Positions 49,542 to 64,000 of a DNA stretch of 64,000 bases are shown here, piece by piece (positions within the stretch are counted from its first letter, which is position 1; every line of letters starts with the position of its first letter). The notes beneath the pieces were generated by a model. It was not told the DNA's origin. It worked only from the letters and a program-made list of their open reading frames with translations, and ran no database searches. The translations under genes were made by a program, and so were the position numbers. The stretch comes from Blastocatellia bacterium (lineage in GTDB: Bacteria; Acidobacteriota; Blastocatellia; UBA7656), in contig CAVXWP010000003.1 in the NCBI GenBank assembly GCA_963765495.1, positions 262,671 through 326,670 of the forward strand. Direction: 5' to 3'.

Positions 49542-50693
49542 ATGATGCAGATGAAGAACTTTTTCGTTCTCGGTCTTATTTTGTGCATGTGCCTGTCAGT
49601 CTTCGCACAGGATAGTTCCTACGATGGGCTCGACAATAATCTAAGCAACTTGTACCGGCTGTCTGGAGCGAAGACTTTTTCGATTAGCCCGGAGAACCTG
49701 ACGGGAGAAAAAGGCAAGGGCGGGATGGCAATTCAAGGTAATGCTTCAGACGCTGCGCGGGATTTAGGGCAAGGCTGGAAGATCAACCCTTTCATAATTA
49801 TTGAGCCGGGTAAAACCTTCACTTTAGCGGAGATCAACGGTCAGGGTGCCATTCAGCATATCTGGATGACTCCCACAGGGAACTGGCGTTTCTCGATCCT
49901 TAGAATCTACTGGGATGATGAAACGACGCCTTCGGTCGAGACACCGGCAGGCGATTTCTTCGCGATGGGCTGGGGCAAATACGCGCAGATATCCTCGCTG
50001 CCGATCTGCGTTAATCCGGGCAGTGCTTTTAACTCCTATTGGATGATGCCCTTTAGAAAGAGAGCGAAAATCACGATGGAGAACCTGGACGTGAGGTCGA
50101 TGAGGCTCTACTACCAGATAGATTACACTCTGACTCAAGTGCCAAAAGACGCCGCTTACTTTCATGCGCAGTTTCGCAGAATCAACCCTCTGCCCGAAAA
50201 AGAGGTGTACACCATAATAGATAACATAAAAGGCAAAGGGCATTACGTCGGGACTTATCTGGCGTGGGGAGTAAATAATAATGGATGGTGGGGGGAGGGC
50301 GAGATCAAATTCTACCTGGACGGTGATCAACAGTTTCCGACGATTTGCGGCACAGGGACAGAAGACTATTTCTGCGGGTCATACAACTTTGAGAATCAGG
50401 AGAAGAAGCAGTACCAGGAATTTACTACCCCCTACTCCGGGCTTGCGCAGGTAATCAGACCGGACGGGCTCTACCAGTCACAGCAGAGGTTCGGTTTGTA
50501 TCGATGGCATATAGCAGACCCCGTGCGATTTGAATCTGACTTGAGGGTTACTATTCAGGCTCTCGGATGGAAAAGCGGGGGCAGGTATCTTCCGCTTCGC
50601 GATGACATCGCTTCCGTAGCATACTGGTATCAGGTCGAGCCACACGCATCATTTCCAAAACTCCCGAATAAGGATCAACTGGAAGTGAACTGA
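49542..50693 (+). CDS. GH172 (DUF2961) glycoside hydrolase
   Basis: SISPEN.TGEKG.GG, WWGEGEIKFY.DGD, GTGTEDYF, YRWHI.DP. Confidence 0.9.
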   Translation: MMQMKNFFVLGLILCMCLSVFAQDSSYDGLDNNLSNLYRLSGAKTFSISPENLTGEKGKGGMAIQGNASDAARDLGQGWKINPFIIIEPGKTFTLAEINGQGAIQHIWMTPTGNWRFSILRIYWDDETTPSVETPAGDFFAMGWGKYAQISSLPICVNPGSAFNSYWMMPFRKRAKITMENLDVRSMRLYYQIDYTLTQVPKDAAYFHAQFRRINPLPEKEVYTIIDNIKGKGHYVGTYLAWGVNNNGWWGEGEIKFYLDGDQQFPTICGTGTEDYFCGSYNFENQEKKQYQEFTTPYSGLAQVIRPDGLYQSQQRFGLYRWHIADPVRFESDLRVTIQALGWKSGGRYLPLRDDIASVAYWYQVEPHASFPKLPNKDQLEVN

Positions 50694-50934
50694 AGATATG
50701 AGACAGCCACCATCTTTGCAAGAGCGAGGGTCGTCGGCCACAAGGAGATTCGATCCGCGAATGCTACAAATTATGTCGTTATGGATGTTCATAAACTGAT
50801 TACGGGAAAATTCTGTTAAGGCAAAGGGGCAGCCTGATCGCCCCTTACAGCGTATGCTAATTCCATCGTGCTATACTCCCGCCGTAATCATTACGGCCAG
50901 CCTCGGGCTGCTCATAAGGAGACCAGGAGAGAAT

Positions 50935-51795
50935 ATGACGCGAACAGCAATGTGTATCGTGGGCGCAATCGCCTTTACATTCCTGATGTCTTGCTCGGCC
51001 TACTCGCAGACCGTCAATATTTGGCCCGGCACAGCTCCGGGTTCCGAGAATTGGACCCAGAAGGAAAGAACTGCGGACAACACTCCTATTGGGACCGTAG
51101 TCTTTAACGTGGTAACACCGACATTGACGGCTTTCCTTCCAGAGCGAAGCAGGGCGACTGGAACCGGAGTCATCATCGCCCCTGGCGGCGCTTTCGTTGC
51201 GCTGGCCATAGATTTGGAAGGTAACGATGTTGCGCGCTGGCTTCAGGAAAGAGGCATCGCCGCCTTCGTACTCAAGTATCGGATTGTGGAAAAGCGCCAG
51301 GAAGGCATCCCTACGATAAACATGGACGAGGCTGGTAAATATGGCATTGCTGACGGCATTCAGGCCCTCAAGGTGGTTCGCCAGCATGCAGCCGAGTGGG
51401 GCCTGTCACCCGACAGAATCGGCTTCATGGGATTCTCAGCCGGGGCCATGGTTACAAGCGGGTCCCTGCTTCAGAGCGACCCGGCGTTGCGTCCGAACTT
51501 CGCTGCAATGATCTATGGTGGTCCGTTCGGCGTCATGCCGACTATTCCCGCAAAACTGCCGCCCATGTTTCTAGCCTGGGCGCAGGACGATACGTTGGCG
51601 CTTGAGCCCGTAGTCAAATTTTATGGCGCCCTAACATCAGCAGGTCACAAACCTGAGGTCCACATTTTTAGCGCCGGAGGCCATGGCTTCGGCATGCGGA
51701 AACAGGGCACCAGCAGCGACCACTGGAACGAAGCATTCTATTACTGGCTGGAAGGGCAAGGATTCGCCAGACGGGCAGGAATATCCGATCACTGA
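50935..51795 (+). CDS. Alpha/beta hydrolase (carbohydrate esterase-like)
   Basis: PGGAF, GFSAG nucleophile, GGHGFG; AGGAG RBS. Confidence 0.88.
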   Translation: MTRTAMCIVGAIAFTFLMSCSAYSQTVNIWPGTAPGSENWTQKERTADNTPIGTVVFNVVTPTLTAFLPERSRATGTGVIIAPGGAFVALAIDLEGNDVARWLQERGIAAFVLKYRIVEKRQEGIPTINMDEAGKYGIADGIQALKVVRQHAAEWGLSPDRIGFMGFSAGAMVTSGSLLQSDPALRPNFAAMIYGGPFGVMPTIPAKLPPMFLAWAQDDTLALEPVVKFYGALTSAGHKPEVHIFSAGGHGFGMRKQGTSSDHWNEAFYYWLEGQGFARRAGISDH

Positions 51796-51934
51796 CCGGC
51801 TTCGCGACTTTACGGAGCAGCTTACATCGTAGCGCACCCGGTGCGATACCCGTCATTTCATTGGGCACGAGCGCGGAAAGCGAGTTTTACCTATTGTTAA
51901 TATCCTCACTTTGGGAAAGCAGGAGGGAAATACG

Positions 51935-52489
51935 ATGAGATATATGATCCTGTTTATTGCGCTTATACTTTGTCTATCTCTCTCTCTGTTCCACGCGACG
52001 AGTGACACGCTTGCTGGCAGCCAGAATCAATCCACCAGCCAGGCAATCTCTCCTTGTGATATTGCAGCCTATGTCATAGACCGTGACCCAAACGGTCTGA
52101 ATGTGCGTGCCGGAGCGGGCAAGACTTATAAAACTATCGGGAATCTGCCAAATGGACAGGTAGATGGCATAGTCGTTCATATCACAGGCTTCCAGGGTGA
52201 CTGGGCCCGAATAGATAAAGCCGTAGAGGAGGGTGGGGATAATGAACGGACATTTTTTGAAGGGGATGGGTGGGTCTATGCTCCTCTGCTAGGCGTAGAG
52301 GGCATGAGAACGAGGCTATTTAAGGAGCAGACCGAAAAGAGCAATGTCGTGATCCTTATCCCGGCAGGAGACGACGGTGTGAGAGTGCGAGGGTGTCGAG
52401 GGAAATGGATGTATGTAGAATACAAGAAAGCGAAGGGCTGGGCAGCACCTGGAACACTATGTGCAAACTCGCTGACGACTTGTAGCTAA
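51935..52489 (+). CDS. Secreted SH3b-domain protein
   Basis: Signal peptide; D.DPNGLNVRAGAG, GWV, C-terminal CANSLTTCS. Confidence 0.72.
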   Translation: MRYMILFIALILCLSLSLFHATSDTLAGSQNQSTSQAISPCDIAAYVIDRDPNGLNVRAGAGKTYKTIGNLPNGQVDGIVVHITGFQGDWARIDKAVEEGGDNERTFFEGDGWVYAPLLGVEGMRTRLFKEQTEKSNVVILIPAGDDGVRVRGCRGKWMYVEYKKAKGWAAPGTLCANSLTTCS

Positions 52490-52577
52490 TAAGAGCGACA
52501 TGGGAAGAACCACCATCTAAGCCACTTGAAAAACCTGACTCTGTTTGCCGTGGATTGCTACAAACCGCCTGAAAAAG

Positions 52578-52606
52578 ATCAGGGCCACCTTTTGAGTGGC
52601 CCTGAT
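52578..52606. terminator. Perfect 11-bp hairpin terminator downstream of the tRNA fragment
   Basis: ATCAGGGCCAC-cttttga-GTGGCCCTGAT with A/T runs on both sides. Confidence 0.8.
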
Positions 52607-52621
52607 TTATTGAATCTAAAA

Positions 52622-52667
52622 GTGGAGCTAGTCGGGCTCGAACCGACGACCTCTTGAATGCCATTCA
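52622..52667 (-). tRNA. 3' half of tRNA-Ala(GGC), probable integration (att) site rather than a complete gene
   Basis: Minus strand TGAATGGCATTCAAGAGGTCGTCGGTTCGAGCCCGACTAGCTCCAC = anticodon arm, T-arm and acceptor 3' strand; D-arm and 5' acceptor strand absent. Confidence 0.85.
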
Positions 52668-53094
52668 TTTCACCAGCCGCCAATCTCAATGACAATTCAT
52701 TATGTTTAGTTAAGTTTAGGAGCAAGTTAAGCCATCAGCCAGCAGGTCAATATCACTGAATATCACCCAGCGTCTATAAAAATTTGTCACAAGATTGTCA
52801 CAAGCTTTTCTTATATGGGTATAACGTCAGTGGCAGATCAGAGTTCTTTAGTGATTACGAGACCGCATTCTACGCCAGCTCTCTTCGTGTGAACTTGGTA
52901 GCACTTGTTGAAAGATAATGCTCGGGGCGAGCCTGGGCCATCCGCTCGATTCCGCAAGTACCGCGTTCATTTGATAGAAGATCTTCGCAGCTTATCAGGC
53001 AAGTTCAACTTATCATCAATCAACACGTCGATAGAGATCTTCATCAGCCTTTGCACAAGCCAGCAAAACTGAAAGCTAGGGCTGGCCGGTCAAA

Positions 53095-54057
53095 TCACGT
53101 TCTGCGATTATCTAGCGGACTCTTGACCCCTCGACCTCCGCTGTTGAGTACGTGTGTATAAATCATTGTCGTGCTTACATCCTTATGACCGAGCAATTCT
53201 TGCACCGTTCTTATGTCATATCCGTCTTCTATCAGATGCGTCGCAAAACTATGTCTCAACGTATGGCAACTGGCTGGTTTCACAATCCCTGCTTTCTTAA
53301 CCGCTGCCGCAATTGCGCTCTGCAATCCTGTCTCTGAGTAATGATGCCTTCTTATCTTTCCTGAACGTGGATCAACAGATCGTCTTAATGATGGGAATAC
53401 ATATTGCCAACCCCACGACCGATTCGCTTTGGGATATTTTCTTTCAAGCGCGTATGGCAGATAAACCTCACCGAATCCCTCAGCTAAGTCGCGCGTATGT
53501 AGCCCTTTGATTCTTACCAGGTGGTTCTTCAACTCTTGCTTTATTGTCGCAGGCAGCATCGTAATTCGATCTTTACTCCCTTTGCCATCGCGGACAGTAA
53601 TCTGGTTGTAAGAGAAGTCAATATCCTTAACACGGAGTCTCAAGCATTCCAATAATCTCAAGCCTGCTCCGTATAGCAGACTCCCCATCAGCCAATGAAG
53701 ATCATTGAGTTGGTCAAGTACACAGTAGACTTCTTCTCGGGTTAAGACCACAGGCATCTTCCTGGGTTTTTTTGCTCGCTCAACATTATTTAGCCTGCCA
53801 AAGGGTTGTTTGAGAACTACCTTATATAGGAACAGGAGCGCAGACAATGCCTGATTCTGAGTCGAGGAAGCAATCTTCTTTTCCACAGCCAGATATGAAA
53901 GGAACTGCTCGACTTCTAGGTTGCCCATCTCTGATGGATTACGCTTACGATGAAAGAGTATGTATTCTTTGATCCAGAAAATGTAGGCACTTTCGGTCCT
54001 GATGCTGTAGTGCCTGAGGCGCATCAGGCGACGGGTCTCATCGAGTATTTGGGACAT
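53095..54057 (-). CDS. intI: Integron integrase (tyrosine recombinase)
   Basis: [33 protein letters not shown], integron-specific insert [36 protein letters not shown]. Confidence 0.97.
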
Positions 54058-54104
54058 AGGCAGGCTTTCCCATCTTCGGACAAGAAATCACCTGGGAAGT
54101 GGTC

Positions 54105-54134
54105 AAGATATATATCGAAATCTCCGTTTGTCAA
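54105..54134 (-). promoter_or_regulatory. Candidate sigma-70 promoter for intI
   Basis: Minus strand TTGACA-N18-TATCTT, about 50 bp upstream of the ATG. Confidence 0.5.
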
Positions 54135-54205
54135 CTTGAAAGAGGAGTGCACAGGGAGTAATATGCGCCTACCCAGGGAATATAGAAAGCGGCTCCATTC
54201 ATAAA

Positions 54206-54568
54206 ATGGGAATCTCTACGAGAGTACGCGCAGGTGCGAAAGGGACAAAGAAGCTAGTAAGGCAATATGGGGATAAACTGATCTGTGTCAGGTACAGGTA
54301 CGATGAGGCAAGCAAAAAGCGGTACAAAACGATAGAACTGATAATTGATGAAGTGGCTTGGGAGCGAAAGGCTCGGCGCTATAAGCCGCAACAGGTGGTG
54401 GGGGTGAGAGTTGGAATGGAGGAGCAAGAGCTACAAAAGAGGGTAAAGCAGGCAGGAGGGAGATGGAACAAGGAGGAGAGAGTATGGGAAATAAGGTATG
54501 ATCGGGCGGTTAGTATAGGGGTGAAGGATCGCATAGCCAGAGGAAAGTTTATGAATGGAAAAACCTGA
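54206..54568 (+). CDS. Small basic hypothetical protein between intI and attI
   Basis: 120 aa, K/R-rich; G.KGTKKLV..YGDKL.CVRYRYD and C-terminal VKQAGGRWN....VWE (DUF5710-like); no attC follows. Confidence 0.8.
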   Translation: MGISTRVRAGAKGTKKLVRQYGDKLICVRYRYDEASKKRYKTIELIIDEVAWERKARRYKPQQVVGVRVGMEEQELQKRVKQAGGRWNKEERVWEIRYDRAVSIGVKDRIARGKFMNGKT

Positions 54569-54768
54569 TGGTTTATGACAGAACAAACTTGTTTCTCTAT
54601 GCAGAAACTTGTTTACGATATGACAAACTTTCTGGCGGGCGAGTTTGAAATCAGATGGGAAGGAGCGACAGAAGGGAAAAGGAAGTTTCTGTATAAAAGA
54701 ACTTTGAGGTTTATGATAAGAATAACTTGTTCGTCTATGAGCAAACTTGTTTATGAATGGAAAAACTC
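54547..54768. repeat. Array of eight palindromic GTTT-N10-AAAC(TT) sites in two phased blocks
   Basis: Sites start at 54547, 54571, 54591, 54611 and 54685, 54709, 54729, 54749. Confidence 0.85.
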
Positions 54769-54769
54769 G

Positions 54770-54796
54770 GCTACCGGGTCTATTTCAAAGTTAGGC
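54770..54796 (+). other. Probable attI recombination site
   Basis: GTTAGGC core at 54790-54796 with no upstream attC left arm; first cassette follows. Confidence 0.75.
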
Positions 54797-55152
54797 GTCA
54801 GATCATCGATGAGAGGGAGACGACTCATCAAGCAATGATACGAAAACATGCTCAGGTAAGTCATCGCGAGGACAGCCACTTGCTCGCTTCTCTCTTCTCT
54901 TGTTCCTTCATATGATGTTTCTTCCAAACGATCTATTCAGCATCTGGCTCAATGATAATGCTGCCTCGAAAAGATACCTTCGCAGGGCAATTGCCTGTTG
55001 AGGCAAGGGGTAGAGAAACCTGATTGGGAAGGACGAACTTGCACATCAAGCTGCTTCCTTGGCAATGACAGGAAAACCTGTCTCAGAAAGTGAGACTGAA
55101 AATAGGAGGATCAGGGTCAGCAAAGCGCAAGAAATGAAACAGGCAAGGGGCC
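54791..55152 (+). ncRNA. Gene-less cassette, family A copy 1 (candidate structured RNA)
   Basis: No credible ORF; homologous to 56437-56818 and 58437-58878; nested complementarity. Confidence 0.5.
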
Positions 55153-55237
55153 GCCTAACCGCTCAATCAACCGGACCCGCATACCAACTTCTCGTTATCC
55201 CTTCGACCACAGCGGGCCGGTTATCTCGGTGTTAGGC
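55153..55237 (+). repeat. attC site 1
   Basis: GCCTAAC...GTTAGGC imperfect palindrome, 85 bp. Confidence 0.92.
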
Positions 55238-55374
55238 TCTCGCTTTGGCTAGGAAAACATTAATAGGGTTAAGATGATTCAAACCCTTCCCTTCAGCCCT
55301 CCTCAAAATGTCATTTCAAATTATCAATCACGAATTCTCGCAATTACACTACTTCTGCTCTATACTGCTTCACC

Positions 55375-55683
55375 ATGAAAAAGCATCGAAAGGATCCCAA
55401 ATTGTCCGGACCTCCTGACCTTAATTATTTTGCTGAATGGGATGATGGTGATGGTCGTGCTGGAGTCAATGCCGGGCCAAGCGGGTTGACTTGGTGGTAT
55501 CGACCTAAGGGTCCGGGAGGTAGATTTGGTGAGGTTGGTTCTGATCAAACCTTTGAAGAATTTCTTGGCCACGGACCGAAAGGTGGAGCCGTGCCAGAAA
55601 AAGTGATAGGTGAGCTAGAATCAATCAAAAGGCGCAGGGAATTACAAATGCACAAAGGCGAAGGAGTTCAAGTACAGAGCTAA
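55375..55683 (+). CDS. Cassette-encoded hypothetical protein
   Basis: 102-aa ORF between attC1 and attC2. Confidence 0.6.
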   Translation: MKKHRKDPKLSGPPDLNYFAEWDDGDGRAGVNAGPSGLTWWYRPKGPGGRFGEVGSDQTFEEFLGHGPKGGAVPEKVIGELESIKRRRELQMHKGEGVQVQS

Positions 55684-55828
55684 TCCTGGAACAGAAACGA
55701 ATGGAGACCGACCCTGCGTCCATCGAAGAAACCCGAGAGATCGAGAGATATCTTAACTGGTTCAATAAGAGAGAAAATGAACCAAGCTGAGAGGTTGAAA
55801 GTAATGGATGGCCTAAGAAACGGAAACA

Positions 55829-55914
55829 GCCTAACTGCTCATTCCAGCGGACGCGCATGCCAACTTCTCGATTGCATCGGAGGCCACAGCGCGCCGCTGA
55901 ACTCGGCGTTAGGC
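55829..55914 (+). repeat. attC site 2
   Basis: GCCTAACTGCTCATTCCAGCGGACGCGC...GCGCGCCGCTGAACTCGGCGTTAGGC. Confidence 0.92.
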
Positions 55915-56092
55915 TCGCGGGGAAAGTACCTGACCAACAGCAAGGAATTGGAGGTAGAAATACTTGATCAAACAAGATCATAGTAGCGACAAGATACTTT
56001 CACCAAGCAAGGAGATACGCTTGGGGCCGCGCCTCCCGATATGCCTTGATTGAATTGCAAAGAAAGCCGAGCGCGGCCAAAGACAAAGGCGA
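55915..56092 (+). ncRNA. Gene-less cassette, family B copy 1
   Basis: No start-to-stop ORF; GGCCGCGC...GCGCGGCC hairpin; homologous to the next cassette. Confidence 0.45.
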
Positions 56093-56178
56093 GCCTAACA
56101 TGGGCATTCAACGGACCCGCATACCAGCGTCTCGTTATCCCTTCGCCCACAGCGGGCCGCTGATTCCCGGCGTTAGGC
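56093..56178 (+). repeat. attC site 3
   Basis: GCCTAAC...GTTAGGC, 86 bp. Confidence 0.92.
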
Positions 56179-56357
56179 TCGCGGGAAAGTACCTGACCAA
56201 CAGCAACGAATTGGATGCAAAGGTATTTCGGACAACAAGACCATGATGACGAAAGAGGTCAAAACACCAAGCAAGGAGTTAAGGTTGGGGCCGCGCCAAT
56301 CGAGGCAGACTGATTTGCTCGAAATAAGCGCCGAGCGCGGCCAAAGACAAAGGCGGC
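56179..56357 (+). ncRNA. Gene-less cassette, family B copy 2
   Basis: Shares gaaagtacctgaccaacagcaa and the ggccgcgc/gcgcggccaaagacaaaggcg blocks. Confidence 0.45.
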
Positions 56358-56442
56358 GCCTAACAGGTCGATCAACCGGACCCGCATGCCAACCTCTCGT
56401 TATCCCTTTGCCCACGGCGGGCCGGTTATCTCCGCGTTAGGC
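56358..56442 (+). repeat. attC site 4
   Basis: GCCTAAC...GTTAGGC, 85 bp. Confidence 0.92.
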
Positions 56443-56818
56443 GTCAACCTCAGAAGCGAAACGACTCATAAAGCGATGATGCGAAAACATGTTCAGGTAG
56501 TCATCGCCAGGACAATGCGCTTGCTCGCTTCTCATTCCACTCTCTTCGCATCGCTTATCTCTGTTCCTTTCTCTGATACTGCTTTCTCCCGAATCAGTCT
56601 GTTCAGCATTGCTCAATGACAATGCTGCCTCGAAAAGATACCTTCGCATGGCAATTGCCTGTTGAGGTAAGCGACAGCACAAACCTGATTGGAAAAGACG
56701 AACTTGGCACATCAAGCTGCTTCCTAAGCAATAGCAGGAAAACCTATCTCAGAAAGTGAGGCTGAGAATTGGAGGATCAGGGCCAGCAAAGCTCAAGTAA
56801 TGAAACAGGCAAGGAGCT
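56443..56818 (+). ncRNA. Gene-less cassette, family A copy 2
   Basis: Shares aatgctgcctcgaaaagataccttcgca, caattgcctgttgagg, tctcagaaagtgag with copy 1. Confidence 0.5.
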
Positions 56819-56903
56819 GCCTAACCGCTCAATCAACCGGACCCGCATTCCAACTTCTCGTTATCCCTTCGACCACAGCGGGCCGGTTATCTCGTCGTTA
56901 GGC
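56819..56903 (+). repeat. attC site 5
   Basis: Nearly identical to attC1. Confidence 0.92.
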
Positions 56904-57048
56904 TCGTGGGGAAAAATGCTGACCAAAAGCCAGGACAAAGTAGCGATGATAAAACCGGAACAACGAACGATCTCGACAAGGGGCCGCGCCTCCCGATATG
57001 CCTTGATTGAATTGCCCAGAAAGCCGAGCGCGGCCAACGACAAAGCGA
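56904..57048 (+). ncRNA. Gene-less cassette, family B copy 3 (shorter)
   Basis: ggggccgcgcctcccgatatgccttgattgaattgc..agaaagccgagcgcggccaa nearly identical to copy 1. Confidence 0.45.
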
Positions 57049-57134
57049 GCCTAACCACCGGTTCGACCGGACCCGCATGCCACCACTTCATTATCCCTCT
57101 GCTACCAGCGGGCCGCTCAACCGGGGCGTTAGGC
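57049..57134 (+). repeat. attC site 6
   Basis: GCCTAAC...GTTAGGC, 86 bp. Confidence 0.92.
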
Positions 57135-57251
57135 TCTCGCAGTTACCTCAAATTCATTGGTATGGTTACTCCAATCTGATTACTCATTTTCATTTGAATA
57201 TCTTTGCCTCCCTACATAGAATCAGTTCGCTTTCGCAGATTTTCTTAGTGA

Positions 57252-58283
57252 GTGGTTATTACGTTTTGGAAAGGAGTTTTATCGTTTATGGTACGGCGTC
57301 CTATTGTCTTATGGGACTTGCGACTGGGTGTATGGGGGGTGCGTAACTACTACTCCACCTTGGAGCAACGAGCCATCACGGGAGCCATCATATCTCCCGG
57401 TTACATTGCTATGATCTTTGCCGCGGCGGGCATGGCGACTGCCGGACTGCTTCTAAACAGTTCAGCAGCAATAATTGGGTCTATGTGTGTTGCCCCATTT
57501 ATGGCCCCTTCACGAGCCGTGTGTATAGGCATAATTTTTCGGGAACCGCGCATCGTCTTGAAGGGTCTACTTAAGCAACTCGCTGGGTTGCTTTTCCTTG
57601 GGAGTGGTGTCGCAACAATTCTTACACTACTTATTCAAGGCACATTCGGTGGTCTTTCTATAACGCCAGAAGTTTTGTTGCGGGCCATGCCTACAACACA
57701 AGACGTGCTACTCAATGCTTTAATAGCCCTCTCGGCTGGTGCGGCGGCAACTTTGGCTCTTACTGCTGAACCACATATTGTAGAAACCCCTTGGGGTCAG
57801 GTTCTTGATGCAGTAATTGGGGTCGAAATCGCCGTTTCGCTGTTACCCCCGGCGGCAGTGGTAGGTATCGGCCTTGCATTTCGTAGGGCAGATATTGCTA
57901 ATCATGCTTTACTCCTTATGCTCTTAAATGTTCTTGGGCTTGACATAATAGGTAGTGGGCTAATTCTTGTACTGCGAGGAATCCGTAGAAGATATCTTGA
58001 TCTGGAAAAAGCGATTCGTGATTCAGTAGCTGTAACACTTGACATTGTTCCTGGATTCATTGACATGGGCAGTACAATAGACGTGACGCTTTTGAGCCCC
58101 TCGGAGACCCGCATAAATGTAATTGTGCGTCGGCGTTTTGGAGGGAAAGTTCCTGAGACACTAGCCCATACTATTGCAATAAACGTGACTACGGAAACCG
58201 GCTGCCATAGTGATGTCACTGTTGAAGTGATTCCACTACTCACGCACTCAGAGTTAGGACTATCCTTTAACAAAGAGGAATAA
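57252..58283 (+). CDS. Cassette-encoded DUF389-family membrane protein
   Basis: AT.GLLLNSSAAIIGSMCVAPFMAP, IGV.IAVSLLPPAAVVGIGL; start uncertain (ATG 57288 possible). Confidence 0.85.
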   Translation: MVITFWKGVLSFMVRRPIVLWDLRLGVWGVRNYYSTLEQRAITGAIISPGYIAMIFAAAGMATAGLLLNSSAAIIGSMCVAPFMAPSRAVCIGIIFREPRIVLKGLLKQLAGLLFLGSGVATILTLLIQGTFGGLSITPEVLLRAMPTTQDVLLNALIALSAGAAATLALTAEPHIVETPWGQVLDAVIGVEIAVSLLPPAAVVGIGLAFRRADIANHALLLMLLNVLGLDIIGSGLILVLRGIRRRYLDLEKAIRDSVAVTLDIVPGFIDMGSTIDVTLLSPSETRINVIVRRRFGGKVPETLAHTIAINVTTETGCHSDVTVEVIPLLTHSELGLSFNKEE

Positions 58284-58357
58284 GTAGTGGAAGGCCAATT
58301 CCGTGAGGAGACACTATAGCCAACAACCAGTCAGAGACATAAGGATTCAAGAACTAA

Positions 58358-58442
58358 GCCTAACTGCTCATTCCAGCGGACGCGCTTGCCAACCGCTCGT
58401 GTTCCACTGGTTACCGGCGCGCCGCTGAATTCGTCGTTAGGC
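58358..58442 (+). repeat. attC site 7
   Basis: GCCTAAC...GTTAGGC, 85 bp. Confidence 0.92.
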
Positions 58443-58878
58443 GTCAGATCACCGACGAAAGGGAGACGACTCAGTTTGCCTTGCTGTTGAAACCTGTCCA
58501 GGCAAGTCATCGCCAGGACCCCTACTTGCTCGATTCTCTTGCCTCTTTATCCCATACTACTCTGCTGTGTCTCTCATCCCTGCTCCTTCATCTGACACTT
58601 CTTTCTCCCAAAGCAGTCTTTCAGCATTGCTCATATAAACCTGTCTGGCGAAGAAGCCTGTTCAGCCGATTGCCTGTTGAGACAAGCATCAGAGAGGCGA
58701 GTTTGGAAAAGAGGAAGTAGGCAGATCAAAAAGCTTCCCCGACGAAAGAGAGCAACACCTGTCGCACGAGAGAGGAAATGACCTGTGAGGAAGAAGAGAA
58801 ACTGTGCAGAAACGAGAGATAAGAATAGGAGGGTTATGATCAGGAAAGCTCAAGAAGGATGAATCGGCGAAGGAAGCC
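58443..58878 (+). ncRNA. Gene-less cassette, family A copy 3 (diverged)
   Basis: gtcagatca..gggagacgactca, aagtcatcgc.aggac, acttgctcg, ttcagcattgctca, attgcctgttgag shared with copies 1 and 2. Confidence 0.5.
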
Positions 58879-58963
58879 GCCTAACTGCTCATTCCAGCGG
58901 ACGCGCTTTCCAACTACTCGCGTTCCACCAGCTACCGGCGCGCCGCTGAACTCGTCGTTAGGC
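58879..58963 (+). repeat. attC site 8
   Basis: GCCTAAC...GTTAGGC, 85 bp. Confidence 0.92.
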
Positions 58964-58993
58964 AGACTGTCGAGAGATGCTATAATTGCAAAC

Positions 58994-59438
58994 GTGAATC
59001 TAAATCGGCTTCTTTTCAAAATTCTTTTGATTGAGATTGCTCTCTCCTTCTCTACGCTTTGGTTTTGTTCGTCTCATGATTTGCCAGACCGTGCTTTGAT
59101 CCTTTACTTGCAAAAGCAGCCTCAGATCAGGCAGTTTGAAATTCTTAGTCGAATTGATCATCCTATATTAAAGACTACGAAGCCCTTGCTCTGGGTGTTG
59201 ACAATGAAAGACGGATTTATCGAATATCGTGTCAGGATTTCTACTCGACAGGCCGATTTAGAATTACATCTATAAGCTGCGGAAGAAAGAGGGAATTTGG
59301 GAAATCCTTGAGCAGAGATGTCATACAATTCAAATGATTGCAGAATTAGAAAAGGGTAAAATTTGCGGTCCGGTGTGTGATATTGTTGTATCGGACAAGA
59401 ACGGCAAGAAAGTAGGTATCAAAATGAGCAACGGGTGA
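58994..59438 (+). pseudogene. Probable frameshifted cassette gene (unknown exported protein)
   Basis: VNLNRLLFKILLIEIALS..LELHL* overlaps a second frame NYIYKLRKKEGIWEIL..KMSNG* that ends just before attC9. Confidence 0.45.
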
Positions 59439-59461
59439 ATTGAAATAAAAATCGAGGTTCT

Positions 59462-59546
59462 GCCTAACTGCTCATTCCAGCGGACGCGCTTTCCACCATT
59501 TCGTTATCCCTCTGCTACCGGCGCGCCGCTGAACTCGTCGTTAGGC
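59462..59546 (+). repeat. attC site 9
   Basis: GCCTAAC...GTTAGGC, 85 bp. Confidence 0.92.
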
Positions 59547-59685
59547 TCGCTCGGTTGCCCGAAAATTCTTAATTCTATATTTAGGCTGAATACTTGATTT
59601 CACCTGACAACCTGGGTAGGTCAATTGAATAGCTGCCCTATTTTCTGTATCCTCTACAGCCTCAATATTAATTAAGGAGGCGTTG

Positions 59686-60412
59686 ATGAAATTAGGGAAG
59701 ATTCTGGCAGTTCTGGTCGTCACTGCTGCAATTGCCGTTGCAGCTTATTTTGGACTCAGACCGTACTTCCAAGAGCAGAATCAAGTGAAGCAGGATCAAC
59801 AACAGCAGGAACAGGATCGTGCCAAACAGGATAAACAACAACAAGAACAGGATCAGGCGAAGCAGAAGCAGCAACAACTGGAACAAGATCGGGAAAAGCA
59901 GAAGCAGACGGTTGCAGATATTAGAAACACTGGCACTGCCATGTTTAGCTGGCTCACAGATCAGGTAGGTGACAGGGCCAGATCCCCCAGGGATTTCCCC
60001 CATACCCGTGAGCCTGGCAGTTAACAGCCCCGACAGCCTGGACTTTCAAGCAGGACGGCCAAGGAGCGTGCTTGTGACTCATCTTGTCGCGCAAGGACAG
60101 GCCAAAGAGGTGGATCTCAAAGATCACGCGCCGATTACTTTGGATGACCTGAAGAAATTGCTCGTGCCTCAGTACTTACAAAACATTCCGGAGAAAGACG
60201 GCTGGGGGCATCCCTATGAATACTATTTGAAAGTTGGGCAACGCGTGTTAGACCCGCAGGTCATGTTCATCCGCAGCCCAGGCCGCGACGGAAAGTATGA
60301 GAGTTCGCGCTATTCGGTAGCTGGGTTTCCACCAGACAGCTTCGACGAAGATATTGTATGGACAGACGGGTTCTTTGCCCGATGGCCGGAAGGCAGCACA
60401 CCGGGTCATTAG
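59686..60412 (+). pseudogene. Frameshifted GspG/pseudopilin-like membrane protein with Gln-rich repeats
   Basis: AAGGAGG RBS, TM helix, QKQTVADIRNTGTAM; second frame P.KDGWGHPYEY..IRSPGRDG; AGGT duplication at 59963-59970 breaks the frame. Confidence 0.72.
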
Positions 60413-60431
60413 TGATTGGTATGAAGGGGCC

Positions 60432-60523
60432 AACTGACAACGTGTTCGACCGGGCGGAGGCAGCGAGTTCATCCGGCTTCGGCCATAGCCGTCGCCCGCG
60501 CCCGGTTAACACGAGCATTAAGC
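60432..60523 (+). repeat. Degenerate attC of a different sequence type (site 10)
   Basis: AACTGAC-AACGTGTTCGACCGGGCG...CGCCCGGTTAACACGAGC-ATTAAGC; inner arms pair, both core heptamers mutated. Confidence 0.62.
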
Positions 60524-60676
60524 GCACGCGAGGGTTGGTCGGTGAGAATGAACAATACTGTTGGCCAAGAAGACAGAAGGAGACCTCTCTACTCAAAGTC
60601 CTGCTAAAAGGCAAAGTCAGCTGGCGCGGCTCGAACGAAGGCAATGCATCTGTGACGCACTCTCAAGAAGAAGCGC

Positions 60677-60761
60677 GCCTAACTGGGGCATTCAACGGAC
60701 CCGCATGCCAACTATTCATTATCCCTTCGCCCACGGCGGGCCGCTGATGCCTGCGTTAGGC
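60677..60761 (+). repeat. attC site 11
   Basis: GCCTAAC...GTTAGGC, 85 bp; preceded by a 150-bp gene-less body. Confidence 0.92.
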
Positions 60762-60794
60762 CTTACCGGCAACCGTCTATGCTAATATCTCACT

Positions 60795-61019
60795 ATGAAT
60801 TACAAAGATCGGATCACCATTGAGCCAGACAAGCGTGGGGGAAAACCCTGCATTAGAGGGATGCGAATCACCGTCTATGATGTACTTTCATATTTAGCGG
60901 CTGGAATGACTGAGCAAGAAATTCTTAATGATTTTCCTTATCTGACAAAAGAAGACATCATTGCTTGTCTCAGCTATGCTGCTGACCGTGAGCATCAGCA
61001 GATGGTGATTCAAGCGTGA
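60795..61019 (+). CDS. DUF433 antitoxin
   Basis: RITIEPDKRGGKPCIRGMRITVYDVL.YLA.GM..EIL.DFP.L..EDI.ACL.YA. Confidence 0.93.
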   Translation: MNYKDRITIEPDKRGGKPCIRGMRITVYDVLSYLAAGMTEQEILNDFPYLTKEDIIACLSYAADREHQQMVIQA

Positions 61020-61347
61020 AACTACTATTTGATCAGAACCTTTCTCCGAGACTGGTTCGACGGCTTGCCGATCTATATCCAGATTCAAGTCACGTTTATC
61101 TTATCGGATTAGATGCGGCTCCAGATCTTGTAATTTGGCAATATGCACAAGACAATGATTTTATAATTGTGACGAGGGATGCCGATTTCAGTGACTTGAA
61201 TGTGCTATTGGGGTATCCGCGAAAGTGAGATGGATCAGGCGTGGCAACTGCACAACAAGAGAGATTGAAAGTATACTTCGTACTAACTATGAGGTTGTAG
61301 AATCGCTCGCGAAAGATAGTTCCGTTGGGATTCTCACTCTATTCTGA
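61016..61347 (+). pseudogene. DUF5615 PIN-domain toxin, frameshifted
   Basis: MKLLFDQNLSP..IVTRDADF..GYP then shifted KVRWIRRGNCTTREIE..GILTLF*; consistent with a 1-nt deletion near 61219. Confidence 0.85.
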
Positions 61348-61372
61348 ATAGAAATTGCAGCCTTGAGACGCA

Positions 61373-61457
61373 GCCTAACTGCTCATTCCAGCGGACGCGC
61401 ATTCCACCTTCTCGTGTTCCATCTGCTACCAGCGCGCCGCTGAACTCGTCGTTAGAC
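61373..61457 (+). repeat. attC site 12
   Basis: GCCTAAC...GTTAGAC, 85 bp. Confidence 0.9.
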
Positions 61458-61609
61458 CCTCGGTTGCTCGCTGTGGATCACCACAGTGAGACGATGTGGA
61501 TTCTTCACTGGATAATTTCAACTTTCCGCGTATCTTGATTAAGGCTCATTTCAGTCTTTAAGAAAGGGATTTTAAGGCTGGCTTCCAGCCGATTTGAGGT
61601 TGTAGGTTT

Positions 61610-62192
61610 ATGAAAGAATGGTTTCTATTTATTGTGATATTCTTCCTCATTGGGAATTCTTCTGCTATAAAGGCACAGAAGCGTAAATATCTGAGAATCA
61701 GAGAAAGACCTCTTGTTTGGTTTGACCTTGATTGCGCAACAAAAACTGCCTACTCTAAGCTCAAACTAGATCGGCTTGTTAAGCCCTCATGAAACAGGTT
61801 GATTCTGACATGGGGAAATGGGGAGATCGTGCTTTTGCATTTGACCTAAATGGTGATGGAGACAAAGAAGTTTTTGTTCTTCTCGATTGCTCTGGTCTTG
61901 GAAACTGTAATTGGGGAATTTTCAGTACCAAACCTGCGCGTTGGCTAGAATTATCAATGGCGAACATATTTGGGTTCATAGACGAAATGGAAATTGGTCT
62001 CGACTGACCGTAGCAAGTGACATGAATGTCTCGGAGAGTTTACTGCGTACATACAGATTTAAGAATGGAAAATACAGGAGATTTGGAAGTGACTATTTGG
62101 AAAGTGCATACAAAGGTAATGAAGTTGAGAATTTGTATACAGTGAAACCAACCTGTGACCGACACCGGATACGTCAAAAGGATAGAAAATAA
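61610..62192 (+). pseudogene. Cassette gene for a secreted protein, broken into three frames
   Basis: Signal peptide MKEWFLFIVIFFLIG; DLNGDGDKEVFV..CSGLGNCNW; YRFKNGKYRR in overlapping successive frames. Confidence 0.62.
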
Positions 62193-62295
62193 TGAACAAA
62201 CCAATCGGAGATCGCTCTATGAAAGTAAGGGAGGGGGGACGGGCATTCTCAAGAGGTGTTTATTTTAGGGGCAGGATGCTAACCAAGGCAATTGG

Positions 62296-63334
62296 GGCTT
62301 TGTTGCGCAATTCGAGATGAAGATAGACTTCACCCAGACTTCGACCTCTTTTAGAATGCTACTGTGTCGGGCATCCCTAACTCGCTCATCCGATTCATCG
62401 CCATGCACTTGATCCTTGCCTCCGTTATTTGTGTCTCCATCTTCCTACTGCTCATTCGCTCTCCTAATATCCCCTTTAGCCTGCCCATCTGTGTCTCTAC
62501 CAAGCTCCTCTTGTGATACCCACTCTCTTTCTTCCACTCCTTCTCTCCTTTCTCTGCCTTCTCTCTTATCGCCAGGTTTCTTTCCCCCATATAATAATAC
62601 TTGCTCTCGACTGCTCCCTTTCGCGGCGGGATCAATGGCTTCGCTCCCTTCTTATAGATCGCCTTGTGACACTGGTTTGTATCATATGCTCCATCCCCAT
62701 ATATCCGACCTACTTCCCCTTCCGTTTCCTCTATCAATCGAGGCATTACTCGCGGGTCAACAACTCCCTTGTCGGTCAACTCTACGGCTGTTATCTCCCA
62801 CGTCTCTGTATCTACTGCTATGTGTAACTTCCTCCATTCTCGTCGTTTATCCTTCCCGTGTGTGCGAACTTTCCACTCCCCTTCTCCATAAATCTTAACT
62901 CCTGTTGAGTCTATTACAAGGTCCGCTATTGGCTTGCTTGTATCGCGCTTCAACCTTATCTCTAGCCCTGGGGCTCGCCTTGATACTCTACTGTAATCTG
63001 CAACGGGCAACTCTACTCCCATCAGCTTGAATAATGAGCAGACGAATCCTTGAGTCTGGCGAAGCGGCAGATGGAAGACGGCCTTGATCGAGAGCATTGT
63101 TATGATAGCAGTGTCAGAATATCTCAATGGAGCGCCGGGGCGTGTTTGAGGAGAGCGGTGTAGCCACTGATCAAGGACATCTTGAGAGAGCCAGACTGTT
63201 AGACTACCACGATTACGAAGAGAGGAGTTATACTGTTTCCAGTTACGGGTGCGATAAGTGGGTTTGTTTTTCTTGGTCATAAAGAGATTATACAAACCCT
63301 CGCGCACCTGTTGCCATATTTACGCAACAAAGCC
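62296..63334 (-). mobile_element. IS5-family (IS903 group) insertion sequence
   Basis: TIRs GGCTTTGTTGCGCAATT / ATTTACGCAACAAAGCC flank the transposase; no target duplication visible. Confidence 0.9.
62351..63307 (-). CDS. IS5-family (IS903-like) transposase
   Basis: YR.RNW..YN.SL..RGSLT.W, IDSTGVK.YGEGEW, WRKLH, GDGAYD, YHKRSLVET; start probably about 63280. Confidence 0.93.
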   Translation of the reverse strand: MREGLYNLFMTKKNKPTYRTRNWKQYNSSLRNRGSLTVWLSQDVLDQWLHRSPQTRPGAPLRYSDTAIITMLSIKAVFHLPLRQTQGFVCSLFKLMGVELPVADYSRVSRRAPGLEIRLKRDTSKPIADLVIDSTGVKIYGEGEWKVRTHGKDKRREWRKLHIAVDTETWEITAVELTDKGVVDPRVMPRLIEETEGEVGRIYGDGAYDTNQCHKAIYKKGAKPLIPPRKGAVESKYYYMGERNLAIREKAEKGEKEWKKESGYHKRSLVETQMGRLKGILGERMSSRKMETQITEARIKCMAMNRMSELGMPDTVAF

Positions 63335-63342
63335 TGGATCGG

Positions 63343-63427
63343 GCCTAACTGCTCATTCCAGCGGACGCGCATGCCAACTTCTCATTATCCCTTGGCTACC
63401 GGCGCGCCGCTGAATTCGTCGTTAGGC
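63343..63427 (+). repeat. attC site 13
   Basis: GCCTAAC...GTTAGGC, 85 bp. Confidence 0.92.
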
Positions 63428-63486
63428 GTCAGAAAGGTTGCTTACTCATAAAAGCCATGTGAGGCCCAGACGTGCAGCACTATCGC

Positions 63487-64000
63487 CTAGCAGCCTAGTT
63501 CGCGGCACCACCGCTTCCTGACGCTTCCGGCTTCAGCATCCCCGTGCATCCCGATCCAGCGCACAAAGGCTTCGAACCAACCGGTGCTCGTCGTTTCCTT
63601 CGGATACATCCCAAAGCCATGGCCACCCTGTTCATAAAGATGGAATTCGACAGGGCGCTTTGCTGCCTTCCAGCTATCGATGAGCCCATAGCCACCGTTC
63701 GCGAAGAAAGGATCGTCGGCAGCAAGGGCGATGAACAATGGCGGAGCGTGGGCCGGCACGGTGACCGGCGCGAGAGGACCGTAGATGATGCCGATGAAGG
63801 CTGGCTTCGCATCCTCGCCCGCGAGCGTGGTCGCCATTGTCAGCATCGCGCCAGCGGAAAAGCCGACCATGCCGATCCGATGGGGATCAACGTGCCACTC
63901 GGCAGAACGCTTGGGGATCAGTGCAAACGCCGCGCGGGCGTCGGCGATCTGCGGAGCGAGACCGGCAGTCGCAGGTCTCAGGTCGGGGCGCGGCGGCCGC
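63487..64000 (-). CDS. Alpha/beta hydrolase, C-terminal part (runs off window)
   Basis: WHVDPHRIGMVGFSAG, GGHGFG; homologous to 50935-51795; possible 1-nt frameshift near the C-terminus (HGD vs HGMLKP). Confidence 0.82.
   Translation of the reverse strand, partial: RPPRPDLRPATAGLAPQIADARAAFALIPKRSAEWHVDPHRIGMVGFSAGAMLTMATTLAGEDAKPAFIGIIYGPLAPVTVPAHAPPLFIALAADDPFFANGGYGLIDSWKAAKRPVEFHLYEQGGHGFGMYPKETTSTGWFEAFVRWIGMHGDAEAGSVRKRWCRELGC

Follow-up and report, generated by a model that had tools for sequence, protein, structure and literature searches.

Gene-less integron cassettes of one family, copied across the arrays of a Blastocatellia bacterium

The DNA considered here, which we call the window, is a stretch of 64,000 nucleotides (nt) from a Blastocatellia bacterium (assembly GCA_963765495.1, contig CAVXWP010000003.1, positions 262,671 to 326,670). 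One end of the window is a chromosomal integron, with an integrase gene, intI, an attI site, and at least 11 attC sites, and the array of this integron carries three copies of a gene-less cassette that we call Family A. The integrase gene (53095-54057, - strand) specifies a protein of 320 amino acids (aa) that matches the NCBIfam integron integrase TIGR02249 with 475.7 bits (cut-off 265) and possesses the Pfam domains Phage_integrase and Phage_int_SAM_4. The first GTTAGGC downstream of intI (54790-54796, + strand) is the attI crossover core and the boundary of the first cassette. This core has no upstream GCCTAAC partner. Between 55153 and 63427 lie 11 sites of the form GCCTAAC-N(71-72)-GTTAGGC, an arrangement expected 0 times on the basis of 100 shuffles.

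Each copy of Family A is a complete cassette, consisting of a body and its own attC, and all three reside on the + strand. Copy 1 holds the first slot of the array, as the earlier note on this DNA had said: its body (54797-55152, family profile score 354.8) begins immediately 3' of the attI core and ends flush with the first attC, an 85-nt site running from GCCTAAC to GTTAGGC (55153-55237). The body of copy 2 (56443-56818, score 362.5) fits flush between two attC sites, the downstream one (56819-56903) being its own. Copy 3 (58443-58878, score 350.3) is a long form with extra CT-rich and GA-rich inserts, and its attC (58879-58963) belongs to a second subtype. The three attC sites were located by pattern match. 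The three stretches had been described as gene-less mobile cassettes of one family, and that description stands. Specifically, each copy fills the space between recombination sites, the copies align over 450 columns with a mean column identity of 76%, and they are separated by indels of 1 to about 44 nt, with no open reading frame (ORF) common to them in six frames. The layout reported for them, pyrimidine-rich 5' and then purine-rich 3', is likewise real. By base composition, the CT-rich tracts of copies 1, 2, and 3 (54879-54935, 56520-56601, and 58525-58619) contain 23-25% purine and 11-12% G (copy 1: 25% purine, 30% C, 11% G), while the GA-rich tracts (55015-55152, 56680-56818, and 58694-58878) contain 63-72% purine (copy 1: 65%). 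One suspected relative fell away: a supposed fourth 5' stub after the attC at 63343-63427 has only its first six bases, GTCAGA, in common with the family and no match to the family profile.

Family A is not confined to the window. A DNA search of the window's own genome returned 37 matches, and a search with the family profile returned 50, including 35 full-length copies scoring 249-362. Most full-length copies adjoin an attC within 0-7 nt, and 0 profile matches lie in reverse orientation, meaning that orientation is fixed relative to attC. The 35 full-length copies represent 31 distinct sequences, which reduce to 21 non-redundant copies when those at least 97% identical are merged; these 21 were used for the RNA consensus and covariation tests described below, and 30 copies were used for several other family-wide tests. 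Bodies measure 350-436 nt in complete cassettes and 283-436 nt when diverged members are counted. The latter include subfamily A2, about ten cassettes of 340-370 nt that are distant in sequence and have the same pyrimidine-then-purine layout, and a few members more diverged still, one of them 283 nt long. Profile-based detection of attC across the genome yielded 247 sites and 221 cassettes. Family A accounts for 48 of the 221 (22%), and 86 (about 39%) have no ATG-initiated ORF of at least 50 aa. We also considered whether the family bodies are two fused cassettes with an internal degenerate attC and rejected the idea, as the genome's attC profile finds nothing in them with an E-value better than 0.76.

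The cassettes are distributed over the arrays of three integrons. The genome holds three intI paralogs, 63-65% identical to one another, located at 53095-54057 of the window (contig C3), at 263576-264523 of contig C6, and at 4153-5100 of contig C17. The three arrays use the same attC type and have cassette families in common, Family A among them. The arrays are located at contig ends, and so the assembly is broken there. They are nonetheless not assembly duplicates of one another: the longest segments at least 95% identical between them are no more than 1.7 kb and resemble insertion sequences.

Family A has been copied many times into these three arrays, and near-identical copies occupy unrelated contexts. 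Specifically, copy 3 and six others of its type form a cluster at 95% identity or above, and their alignment is free of differences outside one short block. Their flanks, in turn, are unrelated on both sides, with ungapped identities of 0.23-0.35 over 800 nt. Family A cassettes are attC-bounded, near intI and attI, present as the same cassette in different contexts, and fixed in orientation, as integron cassettes are. Their placement in the arrays looks random: both members belong to Family A in 10 of 202 adjacent pairs, and 9.5 such pairs are expected. Copies also exchange segments with one another and are mosaics. For example, copy 2 is 97% identical to one paralog in the 5' half but only 84% in the 3' half, and to another paralog 97% in the 3' half but only 75% in the 5' half.

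More generally, short gene-less cassettes are the most amplified cassettes in this genome. All nine clusters with at least four copies at 95% identity or above consist of cassettes of 176-436 nt with no supported gene, and clusters with an ORF longer than 100 aa, a class set by ORF length rather than by coding tests, reach at most three copies. Other short gene-less families are amplified more than Family A. Among them, cassettes of 195 nt form clusters of 12 and 9 copies, those of 176-178 nt form clusters of 7, 5, and 2 copies (two of them within the window), and those of 263 nt have 7 copies. In the window, short gene-less cassettes lie at 55915-56092, 56179-56357, and 56904-57048.

Outside this genome, the family was not encountered in the DNA searched. 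Searches of 40 relatives, of 400 phylum genomes (two candidates scored per genome), of plasmids, and of the intI-adjacent DNA of relatives yielded no Family A copy. A pattern made from the 5' module and scanned against GTDB contigs and metagenome contigs returned seven matches from each; none of the 14 has an attC core or family similarity beyond the pattern stretch. One, L043, gives a weak profile match (10.1 bits, E 0.0008), which is confined to the stretch matched by the pattern. The Family A attC type likewise was not found elsewhere in the DNA searched, and the attC profile of this genome matches the arrays of relatives poorly. Integron integrases themselves are common among relatives. 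Of 24 genomes from the same family, 20 have a match, and the TIGR02249 cut-off is exceeded in 27 of 41 searched genomes, with many intI genes at contig ends. Judging from these searches, Family A is a real, large, and lineage-restricted family.

Family A is non-coding. No ORF is common in position or frame among the copies, and most copies have stops in all frames, at differing places. The ratio of nonsynonymous to synonymous differences per site (pN/pS), calculated for eight pairs in six frames, lies at 0.44-1.3 nearly throughout, and the exceptions (1.6, 2.21, and 7.65) all exceed 1. Parsimony steps over 313 columns have a mean of 3.46, a variance of 5.40, and a lag-1 autocorrelation of 0.14, with no period-3 signal in the steps per column. 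Site-specific constraint on the family is thus weak. Pfam returned 0 families for three ORFs inside the window copies. Many copies do contain open frames of 50-120 codons, their frame and extent varying by copy, and long open frames are expected because the skewed tracts are poor in stops.

These data bear directly on whether Family A could encode a protein or peptide, or be a decayed gene, which we regard as highly improbable. One candidate product is a short peptide that starts at an ATG located 19 or 20 nt before attC and is read through the attC itself. Such an ATG is present in 34 of 35 full-length copies. In 15 of them it opens a frame of 33 aa whose stop is the TAG within GTTAGGC; where the distance is 20 nt, the frame continues into the next cassette. 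Some copies have open frames of 100-120 aa. However, the frames are inconsistent, no consistent ribosome-binding site was seen upstream of the ATG, and the ATG columns are only mildly conserved (1, 2, and 1 steps, compared with the mean of 3.46), and on these grounds we rejected the read-through peptide. The scattered stops, the pN/pS values near 1 in six frames, and the absence of period-3 signal and Pfam matches also speak against any encoded product, as do the near-identical A2 copies, whose differences all change amino acids in the long frame. In the window, the frame that starts from the corresponding ATG near the end of the copy 3 body reaches 138 aa (58859-59275), being stop-free across attC and in frame with the ORF of the next cassette.

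The earlier note had described an apparent long hairpin in these cassettes and proposed that they specify a structured RNA whose pairing survives sequence change. The stem strings quoted for that hairpin do occur in the copies. The copies do not, however, fold better than shuffled sequence. As + strand RNA, copies 1, 2, and 3 have minimum free energies with z-scores of +0.61, +1.21, and +0.28 relative to dinucleotide shuffles, and these energies are equaled or bettered by 75, 89, and 55 of 100 shuffles, respectively. On the - strand as RNA, copy 1 has a z-score of -0.01 and copy 3 one of +1.70, and the bottom strand of copy 3 as DNA gives +2.62. For the central region, the mean folding z-score of 30 copies is -0.32. 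A consensus is also nearly absent. Specifically, RNAalifold applied to the 21 non-redundant copies (453 columns) yields -3.15 kcal/mol with a covariation term of -0.06, and only 2 of its 19 predicted pairs show a compensatory change; the - strand consensus, -2.42 kcal/mol, we take as matching the + strand value. When the pairing probabilities of individual copies are projected on the alignment, no pair of columns has a mean above 0.34. Eight short helices of at least four pairs are kept in at least 80% of 30 copies, the longest having five pairs, and these helices exclude one another. The same scan applied to ten column-shuffled alignments gives 0-5 helices.

The individual stems of the proposed hairpin fare no better. 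The outer stems of copies 1 and 3 pair different alignment columns and so are in different registers. Most outer-stem pairs are broken in many of the 21 copies, and columns 162-277 are unpaired in 19 of them. At the apex, the two inner pairs are broken in 8-9 copies. The CTCA/TGAG stem is paired in 18-21 of the 21 copies and the TTCC/GGAA stem in 17-21; these stems are almost invariant, hence show no covariation and are uninformative. Taken as a whole, the proposed structure is paired in 77.9% of cells compared with 75.6% in shuffles and has 22 further pair types compared with 23.9, and when partners are shifted by one column, 50-54% of cells are still paired. The most direct comparison comes from joining every 5' half to every 3' half. 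The folding residual is +0.31 for the 30 cognate combinations and 0.00 for the 732 non-cognate ones, and cognate halves have a mean rank of 0.50, which is to say that they pair no better than non-cognate halves. Any CU-rich tract pairs with any GA-rich tract, and the appearance of a hairpin follows from that. Finally, an Rfam scan of 50000-64000 on both strands, with E up to 1, gave no match within the copies. Its sole match, outside them, is weak (BSnc120, 22.8 bits relative to a gathering score of 114). The structured-RNA reading of Family A is not supported: the window copies fold no better than shuffles, and 21 diverged paralogs show neither a consensus structure nor covariation, outcomes that the earlier note had itself named as counting against its proposal.

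A broader possibility is that the + strand produces a functional non-coding RNA, whether structured or acting unstructured as an antisense RNA or sponge. The fixed orientation and strong strand asymmetry fit such a product, as do the few short inverted repeats conserved in sequence (CTCA/TGAG and TTCC/GGAA) and two covariation measures that lie slightly above shuffles, and there is precedent in the integron-borne sRNA-Xcc1 (as cited in PMC8876359). With folding z-scores of the copies at 0 or higher, a negligible consensus, a maximal mean pairing probability of 0.34, a null result from the cognate halves, and no Rfam match in the copies, we consider a functional RNA quite unlikely. Two particular forms were tried and rejected. 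The conserved blocks are GGA-rich, which is reminiscent of a sponge for CsrA, but the genome, which is 97.9% complete, contains no csrA (controls were positive), and a GGA-motif sponge would therefore have no partner. For an antisense RNA, stretches complementary to the intI-attI region are 9-mers at most, and there are no genome matches outside the arrays.

Base composition could matter without any structure. We can imagine, although we think it unlikely, that Family A insulates transcription through its composition: Rho would load, in rut-like fashion, on untranslated, poorly structured, C-rich and G-poor RNA from both strands. Insulation of this type would stop read-through from Pc or from the promoters of neighboring cassettes, making the cassette a mobile silencer that lowers the cost of the array, a part of the proposal to which we give the same low weight. 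The family-wide composition is of the appropriate sort. The CT tract has 34% C and 11% G on the + strand, and on the - strand the complement of the GA tract has 31% C and 17% G; the maximal C-minus-G value in 80-nt windows averages 0.23 (+) and 0.25 (-) over 30 copies, and random 400-nt genomic windows have a mean of 0.14 and a 95th percentile of 0.25. A rho gene is present (713.6 bits, cut-off 509), no frame is conserved, folding is equal to or worse than that of shuffles, and the layout is kept despite sequence drift. On the other hand, other cassettes reach mean maxima of 0.18-0.21 as well, the transition-to-transversion ratio in the skewed tracts (0.92-1.10) only slightly exceeds that of the center (0.69), other amplified gene-less families are unskewed, spacing in the arrays is not regular, and a literature search turned up nothing that ties Rho to cassettes of integrons. 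A rut-like composition is a permissive standard, the signal here is modest, and the Rho idea is speculation. The general notion of a mobile silencer acting by composition, which would insulate neighbors and keep a 200-cassette array cheap, would explain why layout and length are kept while sequence drifts; we judge it improbable.

Alternatively, the cassette could supply a promoter, driving either downstream cassettes or, from the opposite strand, transcription in the direction of the upstream attC (of intI, in the case of copy 1). The conserved 5' module contains, on the - strand, a sigma-70-like site (ATGACT, a spacer of 17-18 nt, and (T/C)ATCAT). No other promoter-like site recurs as often in the family, and in copy 1 this one (54864-54835, - strand) passes the prediction threshold. 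Promoter activity of ORF-less cassettes, antisense activity included, has been shown elsewhere (PMC6557892; PMC8876359). Nonetheless, the site is present in only 8 of 30 copies at a lenient 8 of 12 matches, the copy 1 site alone passes the threshold, and the sigma-70-like consensus may not be that of this phylum. On the + strand, no site is common to more than 5 of 30 copies, and promoter-like sites are not enriched over 54000-60000 (7 compared with 5.9 expected). A promoter role is accordingly doubtful in our view, and strongly so.

To our minds, the explanation with about an even chance of being right is that Family A is a self-amplifying, weakly constrained family of non-coding integron cassettes. 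Copying would occur via integrase-mediated excision and re-insertion at attC or attI, and mosaic copies would arise by homologous recombination or gene conversion. The family would persist mainly as a short, cheap, and easily mobilized passenger, that is, as a "selfish" or near-neutral cassette, rather than by virtue of an encoded protein or a specifically folded RNA, and the apparent long hairpin would simply follow from the presence of a purine-rich tract downstream of a pyrimidine-rich one. We favor the passenger because the closest known elements are the non-coding cassettes of Vibrio and because synthetic cassettes can be excised more frequently when short, in some attC and replication contexts (PMC5371416).

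Several observations weigh against a mere passenger. Body length (283-436 nt) and layout are kept even between subfamilies with differences at about 43-59% of their sites. A body without function would be expected to decay and shrink, and the passenger explanation leaves this persistence of length and layout unexplained. The other amplified gene-less families of these arrays (176-263 nt) lack the pyrimidine-then-purine skew. Slow columns are somewhat over-represented, with 23.3% of columns having at most one step compared with a Poisson expectation of 14.0%. Folding is worse than that of shuffles on some strands (z up to +2.62), which could reflect selection against structure. The RNAalifold consensus of -3.15 kcal/mol, tiny in absolute terms, falls below all 30 column shuffles (mean -0.27, minimum -2.09). 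The hairpin of the earlier note has 18 cells changed on both sides compared with 9.6 in shuffles (4 of 500 shuffles reach 18) and a covariation score of 0.134 compared with 0.117 (reached by 16 of 500). These last two excesses are small and lie within what relatedness can produce, together with the origin of the structure, which was derived from one of the aligned sequences.

The surroundings of the cassettes have peculiarities of their own. The gap between intI and the attI crossover (54058-54796) is unusually long, at 733 nt. An ORF of 120 aa within it (54206-54568, + strand) matches nothing in Pfam or NCBIfam, and the other two integrons have no paralog of this ORF. Also in the gap are a direct repeat of 85 nt, whose units at 54545-54629 and 54683-54767 are 72% identical, and the 12-nt inverted repeats TCCATTCATAAA and TTTATGAATGGA at 54194, 54548, and 54750. 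The repeats may be binding sites for the integrase or a regulator. Further along the array, a cassette at 60762-61372 resembles a toxin-antitoxin pair, encoding a DUF433 protein (60795-61019) and, after it, one of DUF5615/PIN-like type (61016-61228). This second protein spans only 69 of 110 profile positions and is followed by another ORF of 40 aa (61225-61347), and thus its gene is possibly frameshifted. A DDE transposase (DDE_Tnp_1_5 and DDE_Tnp_1) is encoded within the array at 62351-63307 (- strand), and repeated elements of about 1.5 kb and 1.14 kb, 97.7-100% identical, recur inside arrays on contigs C2, C3, and C9. Insertion sequences, it seems, accumulate in these arrays.

Large chromosomal integrons are gene banks whose upkeep and cost to the cell are poorly understood. 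Family A illustrates that much of a large array can be self-propagating non-coding DNA, and does so in a phylum far from Vibrio. The family also teaches caution, as a pyrimidine tract followed by a purine tract looks, by eye, like a conserved hairpin. If the persistent layout were functional, for example as a mobile terminator or insulator, it would represent a new way for integrons to control expression of their arrays.

The suggestion that the family is of an undescribed kind was too strong, since highly paralogous non-coding cassettes are known from the chromosomal integrons of Vibrio (Boucher et al. 2006, PMC1382264). Vibrio vulnificus strains carry 45 (CMCP6) and 34 copies of them, and they have been proposed to be either selfish or endowed with a promoter or regulatory RNA role (PMC1382264). 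Like the Vibrio cassettes as that paper describes them, Family A cassettes are attC-bounded and gene-less, with many paralogs in the arrays of one genome (45 and 34 copies there, 48 of 221 cassettes here). Both are similar over their whole length, show no codon-like pattern of substitution, and, in the searches described there and here, have no homologs outside their lineage. Gene conversion is suspected for the Vibrio cassettes, and Family A contains mosaic copies. The limit for "non-coding" used in the Vibrio paper, no ORF longer than 150 bp, is exceeded by some Family A copies, owing to their composition. Compared with the Vibrio cassettes so described, Family A belongs to another phylum, has a bipartite pyrimidine-then-purine layout, and is common to the arrays of three intI paralogs. 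We found no sequence relation between the two groups, though no direct comparison was made.

Two further systems offer points of comparison. A non-coding product from an integron cassette has been proposed or shown for sRNA-Xcc1 of Xanthomonas campestris (Chen et al. 2011, via PMC8876359). Relative to sRNA-Xcc1 as it is presented in that source, Family A copies have no Rfam match, and a complementarity search of the genome found no predicted target for them. The ORF-less cassettes reported from Treponema and from the oral metagenome (Tansirichaiya et al. 2019, PMC6557892) resemble Family A in lacking an ORF and possessing a normal attC. The promoter-bearing Treponema cassettes differ from Family A, across which no sigma-70-like promoter is conserved (best 8/30). 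Family A could contribute to the transcription of its arrays, and a copy in the first slot could send antisense transcripts toward intI, a possibility shared with the ORF-less cassettes of Treponema and the oral metagenome (PMC6557892; PMC8876359).

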